IMG/VR virus record: IMGVR_UViG_2531839668_000005
From: a virus
Taxonomy: Duplodnaviria > Heunggongvirae > Uroviricota > Caudoviricetes
DNA: 30,815 nt
Reading direction: 5' to 3' (one strand)
Under the pieces are notes generated by a model. It saw only the letters and a list, made by a program, of their open reading frames with translations, had not been told where the DNA came from and did not search any database. Positions 15,102 through 16,645 of this stretch are shown piece by piece. Both the position numbers and the translations under genes were made by a program. Within the stretch, counting starts at the first letter, position 1; each line of letters starts with the position of its first letter.

Positions 15102-15696
15102 ATAGTTCCCTCACTTTCATGCGAGTAATAATTTGTAGAAATTTATCAAGATTATCAAATCTATAGAGATCTAACCGAATGTTGTTTGTTTCCATCATAC
15201 ACATTTTACTATATTCGTTTTCAATCTTTGGTATGATATAAAAATCAAGAGGTGAAATATTTTGTGAATTCATTCGTATAACAATTGTTATGTCTGCTTT
15301 CTGTGAGTTATCAAACCGGACTTTCCATCTAAGTTTACCTGATTTCATATGTATGCATTTAGTAACAAGGACGGAAATTAAAAACTCATCATTGATGTAA
15401 AGCATTGGGTAATATTTATACTCGTCTATATGACAGTTACTTTTTAATATTTCGCCCTTAAAATCCTCAATTATCTCTGAGTAAAATGATCTTAGTGCTT
15501 CATTTATTTGGAGATAGCTGTAATCATGTTCTGGCTTATAACCAATCAAAGTATATGCTCTTAAAAGACCACCAAATCGGGTTCTATAAACAGAAGATGA
15601 AGGGCCTGTATCATCTTCATCAATGATAAAGCCTGATAGTTTTCCATTAGATTCTAATTTTTCTTTTAGCTTTTCTAATAGATCTTCATTAGTCAA
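15091..15696 (-). CDS. hypothetical protein (201 aa); possibly the C-terminal part of a split large serine recombinase
   Basis: TTG start only; its frame is open upstream to 15760 and overlaps the open frame of the recombinase ORF across a T6 homopolymer (15738-15743). Confidence 0.45.
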   Translation of the reverse strand: MTNEDLLEKLKEKLESNGKLSGFIIDEDDTGPSSSVYRTRFGGLLRAYTLIGYKPEHDYSYLQINEALRSFYSEIIEDFKGEILKSNCHIDEYKYYPMLYINDEFLISVLVTKCIHMKSGKLRWKVRFDNSQKADITIVIRMNSQNISPLDFYIIPKIENEYSKMCMMETNNIRLDLYRFDNLDKFLQIITRMKVRELYAA

Positions 15697-15730
15697 ATGA
15701 ATGGATCGGAGCTGAATTATTTCTTGAGCT

Positions 15731-16645
15731 TTATATATTTTTTCTTTGAAATAATTGGTTTATATGCCTTGTCACATCTAATCCATTCATGTTTGGGGTT
15801 TTTACAAGCTTACTTTTTAGTTTAGATGAGGTTTTGTTATATATGTTGTTTCCAATATATTTTTCATTTGTCAAAATTTGATGTATTTTTGCACGAGTCC
15901 ATGATGTTCCATTTTCTGCAGGTATGCTCTGTTCATTTAATCTCTCAGCAATAATGAATTCTGGGACGTTACTATCTATAAAGAGATCATAGATTCTATT
16001 TACAATTTTTATTTCATTTTTTGGTCCCGGAATTAATATTACCCTATCTGTTTGAATACTCTTTCTTTTGCGGAAATTCAATATTTCTTTAGCTATGCCA
16101 TTTTCGTCTACTAAAAGACGTCTCAGCCCATAACCAGCCATACCGCCTTGATGATAACCAAGCTTTATTAAATTTACTTGCCCTATAAATACCTTTTCAG
16201 ATAGATTCCTGCTGTGATATGCAGCACTTGATCTTTTTATATTCAGTATAACAGAGGACTCTAAAGGGAAATCTTTAGTGGGTATAGGTTCGGAACAATA
16301 TATAAGATCTACACCATTTCTTTCAAATAGAAAGGAATAATATGCAGCTTCATCACTATTTTGAAAACGACCAAAACGGCTCACATCATAAAATAATACA
16401 GCCTGTATATCTATTTTCTTTTGTTCTACATCGCTAAGTAACTGCTGCAAAGAATGCCTGCCTACGATACTGACTCCGCTCTTACCTGCATCATCGTAGG
16501 TATAAGCGATTTCCATATTGTTCTTTTCAGCATAATCTTTGATATATTCAGACTGATTATGTAAAGAATATTGCTGATGGTCGGTAGACATCCTCAAGTA
16601 CTGTGCGACCCTAACTCTATGATTTTTTTCATTTCCGCTAGCCAT
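15731..16645 (-). CDS. serine recombinase-like protein (resolvase catalytic domain plus recombinase domain; lacks zinc-ribbon C-terminus)
   Basis: RVAQYLRMSTDHQ catalytic-serine motif near the N-terminus and WTRAKIHQILTNEKYIG recombinase-domain motif; ATG at 16643-16645 with GAGG upstream. Confidence 0.65.
   Translation of the reverse strand: MASGNEKNHRVRVAQYLRMSTDHQQYSLHNQSEYIKDYAEKNNMEIAYTYDDAGKSGVSIVGRHSLQQLLSDVEQKKIDIQAVLFYDVSRFGRFQNSDEAAYYSFLFERNGVDLIYCSEPIPTKDFPLESSVILNIKRSSAAYHSRNLSEKVFIGQVNLIKLGYHQGGMAGYGLRRLLVDENGIAKEILNFRKRKSIQTDRVILIPGPKNEIKIVNRIYDLFIDSNVPEFIIAERLNEQSIPAENGTSWTRAKIHQILTNEKYIGNNIYNKTSSKLKSKLVKTPNMNGLDVTRHINQLFQRKNI

Follow-up and report, generated by a model that had tools for sequence, protein, structure and literature searches.

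The question raised by this locus is whether a serine recombinase gene is really broken in two. The gene lies on the minus strand of a 30,815-nucleotide (nt) stretch of DNA, hereafter the window (IMG/VR record IMGVR_UViG_2531839668_000005), which is the whole of contig AFAE02000020.1 in the draft assembly GCA_000194645.2. A sequence-only reading had placed the break at a run of six T residues and proposed that a one-base change there would fuse two open reading frames (ORFs) into a protein of about 520 amino acids (aa), the size of a large serine recombinase. Homopolymer sequencing error, recent pseudogenisation and a slippage-prone switch were offered as explanations. In this study, the locus was compared with complete Escherichia coli genomes, with orthologous loci of other genera and with protein families, and the whole window was compared with its closest finished genome. 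The split does not reflect biology; it is very probably an artefact of sequencing or assembly in which the draft consensus undercalls A/T homopolymers, and the gene would be an ordinary intact serine recombinase of 518 aa.

The elements on which the split had been proposed are all present. The ORF at 15731..16651 matches the Pfam Resolvase and Recombinase domains and ends at a TAA codon (15733-15731). The downstream frame is closed on its upstream side by a stop at 15762-15760, has its earliest possible start at the TTG at 15696 and extends to 15091. Within the overlap of the two open frames, the coding strand has a run of six A residues, seen as T6 at 15738-15743 of the plus strand. An A/T run within the overlap is a mild coincidence and mildly unusual at most, because runs of at least six such bases are present in approximately 4-5% of the 26-nt windows of this AT-rich region (33% GC).

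When the window was aligned with the intact allele, the difference was found elsewhere. Two bases are missing from the gene, and on the coding strand one was lost from GTAAAAAACCCC (T6 to T5 at 15799-15803) and the other from TATAATAAAG (TT to T at 15734). The two deletions are spaced by approximately 65-69 base pairs (bp); one is in a T run other than the T6 tract and the other in a TT dinucleotide. The window reading of the gene is consequently an ORF of 304/306 aa followed by a TTG-started ORF of 201 aa. The final 22 residues of the 306-aa ORF (TPNMNGLDVTRHINQLFQRKNI) are in the wrong frame compared with the native NPKHEWIRCDKAYKPIISKKKYN because the first deletion (15799-15803) shifts the frame, and the match to the Pfam Recombinase domain, which covers positions 2-100 of 102 in the intact allele, stops at position 74 in the window ORF (2-74 of 102). 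The proposal that each ORF is half of a single protein was therefore sound, with a true length of 518 aa, and the proposed route was not. The T6 run is not the break site, its length in the window being that of all 10 aligned intact sequences, and two separate one-base deletions, rather than one change, distinguish the window from the intact allele. A change of -1 in the T6 run closes the frames arithmetically and gives a chimera of 517 aa, in which the frame of about 22 residues (beginning TPNMNGLDVTRHINQLFQRK) differs from that of the conserved NPKHEWIRCDKAYKPIISKKKYN, and a conserved motif that includes the family-invariant Trp288 would be lost.

The segment 15000-16800 was used as a megablast query against 5,426 complete E. 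coli genomes and was present in 656 of them; the best matches span 1803 bases against 1801 in the query. In one such genome (CP025903.1), the region is annotated as a single 1557-nt coding sequence for a 518-aa 'recombinase family protein' (WP_000146253.1), and between 12000 and 18369 the window differs from this genome by only one single-nucleotide polymorphism (SNP) and the two recombinase deletions. The window allele was found in none of the 625 complete genomes that have the 131-base junction segment. The 86 closest complete genomes all show 98.5% identity over these 131 bases, which is the value that two gaps alone give, and two of the 86, checked base by base, show just the two gaps. The 304-aa truncated product is recorded nowhere except in the contig of the window, and a second occurrence of both deletions was found neither among the complete genomes with the segment nor among the recorded products.

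Orthologues in seven other genera have the gene in the same undivided state. Eleven orthologous loci were taken from species-representative genomes, namely, Leclercia, Enterobacter (two loci), Kluyvera (two), Phytobacter, another isolate, an Enterobacteriaceae metagenome-assembled genome and Xenorhabdus (three), and in 10 of the 11 a single open frame of 512-525 codons runs across the junction. In the eight loci that can be aligned as DNA, the three positions read A6, AA and A6 as in intact E. coli, and the window alone is shorter at the first two. All of the best 120 protein homologues (120/120) are exactly 518 aa long, and in 18 family members at 31-45% identity the alignment is unbroken across the junction. 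These data bear on the explanation that two truly separate genes are present, one for a short recombinase and one for a functionally unrelated protein downstream of it. The downstream part does have a different fold, resembling PD-(D/E)XK nucleases, and is without a zinc ribbon, as separate genes would allow; against this, the downstream ORF has only a TTG start, exists as a separate gene in no relative, and is fused to the upstream part in 518-aa proteins across Enterobacteriaceae and in proteins of approximately 510-535 aa down to 31% identity. Two separate genes therefore have a vanishingly small probability.

The eleventh locus (L011), from the old draft of Phytobacter massiliensis JC163, has one-base deletions in other A runs, and the recombinase is split there too. 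Relative to Enterobacter chinensis, these deletions are at L011 positions 7202 and 7658, with A5 to A4 inside the recombinase gene and A8 to A7 just downstream. This split would be a second example of the same type of artefact.

The comparison of tract length in related strains, which had been suggested as a check, showed that orthologous loci consistently encode one protein, the reverse of the two separate proteins named beforehand as a refuting result, and that the cited tract is constant. This bears directly on the slippage-prone switch, that is, phase variation or programmed ribosomal frameshifting at the A6/T6 run that would toggle between a short and a full-length recombinase. The A6 run does lie within the 26-nt overlap of the open frames, as such a switch would need. 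Phase variation is rejected because the length of the T6 tract is invariant in the window and the aligned intact sequences; the 86 nearest complete genomes give no sign of tract variation, and the window allele occurs in no complete E. coli genome that has the segment. A tract of six bases is also short for a contingency locus. Programmed frameshifting is rejected because the orthologues are single ORFs of 512-518 aa, which leave nothing to shift into, and a shift at the tract would put about 22 wrong residues into the conserved motif. Next to no probability is accordingly left for a switch of either kind.

The whole window was then considered for the origin of the two deletions. The closest complete genome, that of E. 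coli O157:H16 98-3133 (CP051001.1), aligns with the window over its full length of 30,815 bases. The differences are two substitutions (12096 and 26295) and seven one-base gaps; all seven gaps are deletions on the window side, each in an A or T run, and all seven fall inside coding sequences that are intact in CP051001.1, so that five genes are broken. At the four deletion sites within its coverage, CP025903.1 has the same state as CP051001.1. One-way indels in homopolymers are thus spread over the contig relative to a near-identical finished genome, and the allele at the recombinase junction is reproduced in no independent assembly. Seven deletions to two substitutions, one-way, bound to homopolymers and locally clustered, are the signature of run-length undercalling, probably in low-coverage patches, and do not agree with natural mutation. 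Four of the deletions form two close pairs (15734/15803 and 18824/18887, 63-69 bp apart), and this pairing would fit local low coverage better than independent mutation. Of the three explanations offered for the split, the whole-window comparison favours homopolymer sequencing error, and the deletions probably arose during sequencing rather than in the cell.

Two further assignments of the error were considered and rejected. Errors in the finished genome instead of the window were set aside on the finding that a second finished genome and the other genera share the longer tracts. An error-free contig with a private mutation was set aside as the leading reading in view of the seven one-way homopolymer deletions across the window.

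A real pseudogene is the main competitor of undercalling. On this account, the strain would carry both deletions and a dead gene, for example after an episode of mismatch-repair deficiency or of Pol IV-driven mutation. The frameshifts do stand in the deposited sequence, and both SNPs relative to CP051001.1 are G/A transitions. One-base indels in A/T runs are the spectrum expected of a mutator. Decay is frequent among island genes, and a copy of an IS3 element has replaced the neighbouring cargo here. The account has to accommodate seven one-way frameshifting deletions against two substitutions in 30.8 kilobases (kb), which is far from a natural ratio of indels to substitutions, as well as the two deletion pairs of 63-69 bp and an allele that no other assembly shares. 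A real pseudogene is considered improbable on this evidence, though it is clearly more credible than either a switch or separate genes.

Several points weigh against undercalling as the cause. A real mutation is formally possible, as the case is built on sequence comparison rather than on reads or quality values. Very short runs (TT and TTT) account for two of the seven deletions, and such runs are less typical sites of undercalling than those of 6-8. The comparison genome CP051001.1 comes from another assembly, perhaps of a different strain (two SNPs), and is not a re-sequencing of the same isolate. The sequencing platform of the draft was not found in the literature, where nothing of relevance turned up on the assembly accession or on strain 98-3133. 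The contig resembles early pyrosequencing-type drafts in its scattered one-way, one-base deletions in A/T runs and in the apparent frameshifts of genes that are intact in finished genomes. It differs from them in that two of its seven sites are runs of only 2-3 bases.

Undercalling would act on the gene as follows. The two undercalls (15734 and 15799-15803) would fall within one intact gene and would make it read as the 304/306-aa ORF with its 22-residue out-of-frame tail and the 201-aa TTG ORF. The organism itself most likely has the gene whole, as the first of a three-gene operon (recombinase, ParB/RepB-like, ParB/RepB-like) beside the P4-type integrase of a mobilisable island.

The proposed relationship to large serine recombinases was borne out by the intact protein. 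It has a Resolvase domain (PF00239, E 7.6e-22) followed by a Recombinase domain (PF07508, positions 2-100 of 102, E 5e-22), and S20 is nearly invariant in the 18-sequence family alignment. The closest proteins by sequence are the SPbeta integrase, the TP901-1 integrase and TnpX; the NCBIfam models gave only sub-threshold CcrB, CcrC and IS607 matches, all to the N-terminal part. An AlphaFold2 model built from the 18-sequence alignment (mean predicted local distance difference test score (pLDDT) 82.8) can be superposed on the integrases of SPbeta, Bxb1 and PhiC31 across approximately 320 residues, and the fold of its catalytic domain matches 3guv, 3bvp and Sin. The protein thus shares with the large serine recombinases (SPbeta SprA/YokA, Bxb1, PhiC31, TP901-1 and CcrB) an N-terminal Resolvase domain with the Ser in Y-x-R-x-S-T and then PF07508. 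It differs from them in the missing zinc-ribbon/coiled-coil region (PF13408 in 0/18 members), in its C-terminal 200 residues, which consist of an HNH_repeat-like helix-turn-helix and a PD-(D/E)XK-like domain, and in the two ParB/RepB-like genes that are always downstream.

The missing CxxC zinc ribbon had been taken as a reason to doubt the fusion. The observation itself was right, and the signature (PF13408) has no match in any of the 18 diverse family members, the C-terminal 213 residues, to which the downstream ORF corresponds, included; it is no argument against the fusion, because the whole family is without that domain. When the C-terminal part alone was compared with 1.84 billion representative proteins, 1,553 clusters matched at E<=1e-3, and many of the matched proteins are 510-535 aa long with the match at approximately 305-520, that is, with the same architecture. 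The first 60 or so residues of this part resemble the 'homing endonuclease associated repeat' PF18780 (HNH_repeat). The match of the window sequence is weak (E 0.052, below the Pfam cut-off), five of the 18 family members match at E<=0.01 (best 2.3e-4), and the PF18780-like segment is found as 3-7 tandem copies in other proteins. A separate model of the C-terminal part (pLDDT 90.4) has restriction endonucleases as its best structural matches and shows a predicted restriction-endonuclease-like alpha/beta core. D452 (P-D context), R458 and D468 do not vary in the family, and the two Asp residues start successive strands. In comparison with PD-(D/E)XK nucleases (I-Ssp6803I, archaeal Hjc and type II restriction enzymes), the consensus here is D-Y-Y and not (D/E)xK, the Lys position being Tyr or Phe in the family, and the sequence identity of the domain to any nuclease is at most 15%. 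As the canonical Lys is not conserved, any nuclease activity of the domain is putative.

Two ParB-like proteins are encoded immediately downstream of the recombinase. PF02195 scores 50.9 bits in the first and PF07506 scores 85.8 bits in the second, each protein being weaker for the other domain, and the first passes the TIGR00180 cut-off. Both match ParB_N, RepB and TIGR00180 as ParB/RepB/Spo0J partition proteins do; they differ from those proteins in being tandem paralogues in a module without ParA, coupled to a recombinase instead of a partition ATPase. The same order of the trio was found in Leclercia and Xenorhabdus, and the trio is also present in all three metagenomic relatives (38-43% identity), whose neighbourhoods are unrelated. 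The trio is kept across unrelated neighbourhoods and is therefore a conserved module. Among the PADLOC defence models, no match was obtained for the recombinase or the first ParB-like protein, and in the second only a ParB-like stretch matched, to a methyltransferase model. No description of a recombinase-ParB-ParB arrangement was found in the libraries and papers searched, and a scan for promoters and terminators around the operon gave background levels. As a best guess, the trio would be a module for site-specific recombination in which DNA is targeted by the helix-turn-helix/nuclease-fold domain together with the two ParB-like proteins. The coordinates of these and other features are collected in Table 1.

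Table 1. Positions of the recombinase gene, its deletions, the associated genes and the remaining one-base deletions (window positions unless another locus is named)
Feature	Position	Strand	Remark
Recombinase gene, full extent	15091..16645	-	1555 nt in the window; 1557 nt (518 aa, WP_000146253.1) in intact alleles
First deletion in the recombinase gene	15799..15803		T5 (coding A5) against T6 in all relatives; first frameshift
Second deletion in the recombinase gene	15734		Single T against TT in all relatives (coding TAT-AAT to TATAT); net shift -2
T6 tract named in the sequence-only reading	15738..15743		Same length in the window and every relative aligned; not a lesion
Premature TAA	15731..15733	-	Reached only through the frameshift at 15799-15803
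Downstream ORF	15091..15696	-	TTG start, 201 aa; residues ~318-518 of the true protein
First ParB_N + RepB protein	14205..15101	-	298 aa; ATG overlaps the final 11 nt of the recombinase gene
Second ParB_N + RepB protein	13312..14208	-	298 aa; 4-nt overlap with the first
Trio in the window	13312-16645	-	Recombinase (~520 aa) and two ParB_N + RepB proteins (~295 aa)
Trio in locus L004	6001-9336		As above
Trio in locus L012	5986-9302		As above
Trio in locus L024	1311-4709		As above
Trio in locus L025	5001-8318		As above
Deletion	5362..5367		A7 to A6 (A7 also in CP025903); inside a gene for a 106-aa hypothetical protein
Deletion	18823..18824		TTT to TT relative to CP051001; inside a gene for a 222-aa hypothetical protein
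Deletion	18882..18887		T7 to T6 relative to CP051001; same 222-aa gene, 63 bp from the deletion at 18823-18824
Deletion	21039..21044		A7 to A6 (A7 also in CP025903); in the P2-like prophage, inside its Rha-family regulator gene
Deletion	27443..27449		T8 to T7 relative to CP051001; inside a gene for a 280-aa hypothetical protein
P4-type tyrosine integrase of the island	16928..18301	-	Upstream of the recombinase

The E. coli trio adjoins the P4-type integrase and lies in a mobilisable island with a relaxase, and the island in turn adjoins a P2-like prophage and ypjA. Cargo of defence type (NACHT, RelA/SpoT, DUF4928 and dCTP deaminase) is present in the island of some strains. An IS3-family element occupies 10540-11711 of the minus strand in the window (orfA, 102 aa; orfB, 288 aa), where CP025903.1 has NACHT-domain and RelA/SpoT-family genes; the DUF4928 gene beside the element is truncated, and the cargo of the island varies by strain. 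In the region 18370-18480, the match to CP025903.1 ends abruptly at 18370, just past the P4-type integrase gene, and an anti-phage dCTP deaminase gene that is located between the island and P2-like integrases in CP025903.1 is missing in the window. In the P2-like prophage remnant, genes for a 138-aa hypothetical protein and a 200-aa TIR-domain protein (28478-29497, plus strand) separate the replication genes from the truncated portal gene, and this pair looks like small defence-type cargo in a prophage hotspot. The attachment site was not located, because scans of the window for tRNA and transfer-messenger RNA (tmRNA) genes and with Rfam detected no tRNA or tmRNA gene or fragment.

The frameshifts in the contig of the window, and probably in the whole draft assembly, should not be taken for pseudogenes or switches. 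At least five genes within 31 kb are affected, and any frameshift call in the contig is suspect. The analysis also yields a clear picture of the intact gene and of the conserved trio, which could merit a separate look. Independently of the artefact, we suggest tentatively, as a possibility that is on balance doubtful, that the intact gene may represent a large and apparently undescribed family of serine recombinases (its C-terminal half finds matches in approximately 1,550 clusters at 50% identity). In such a family, the zinc-ribbon/coiled-coil module for DNA recognition would have been replaced by a homing-endonuclease-type helix-turn-helix and a PD-(D/E)XK nuclease-like domain, and the gene would be locked in a translationally coupled operon with two ParB/RepB-like proteins. 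The operon could then work by a new mechanism as a mobile or DNA-targeting module complete in itself; examples would be a recombinase for which ParB-like clamps provide guidance or loading, and a recombinase-nuclease that would act on foreign DNA.
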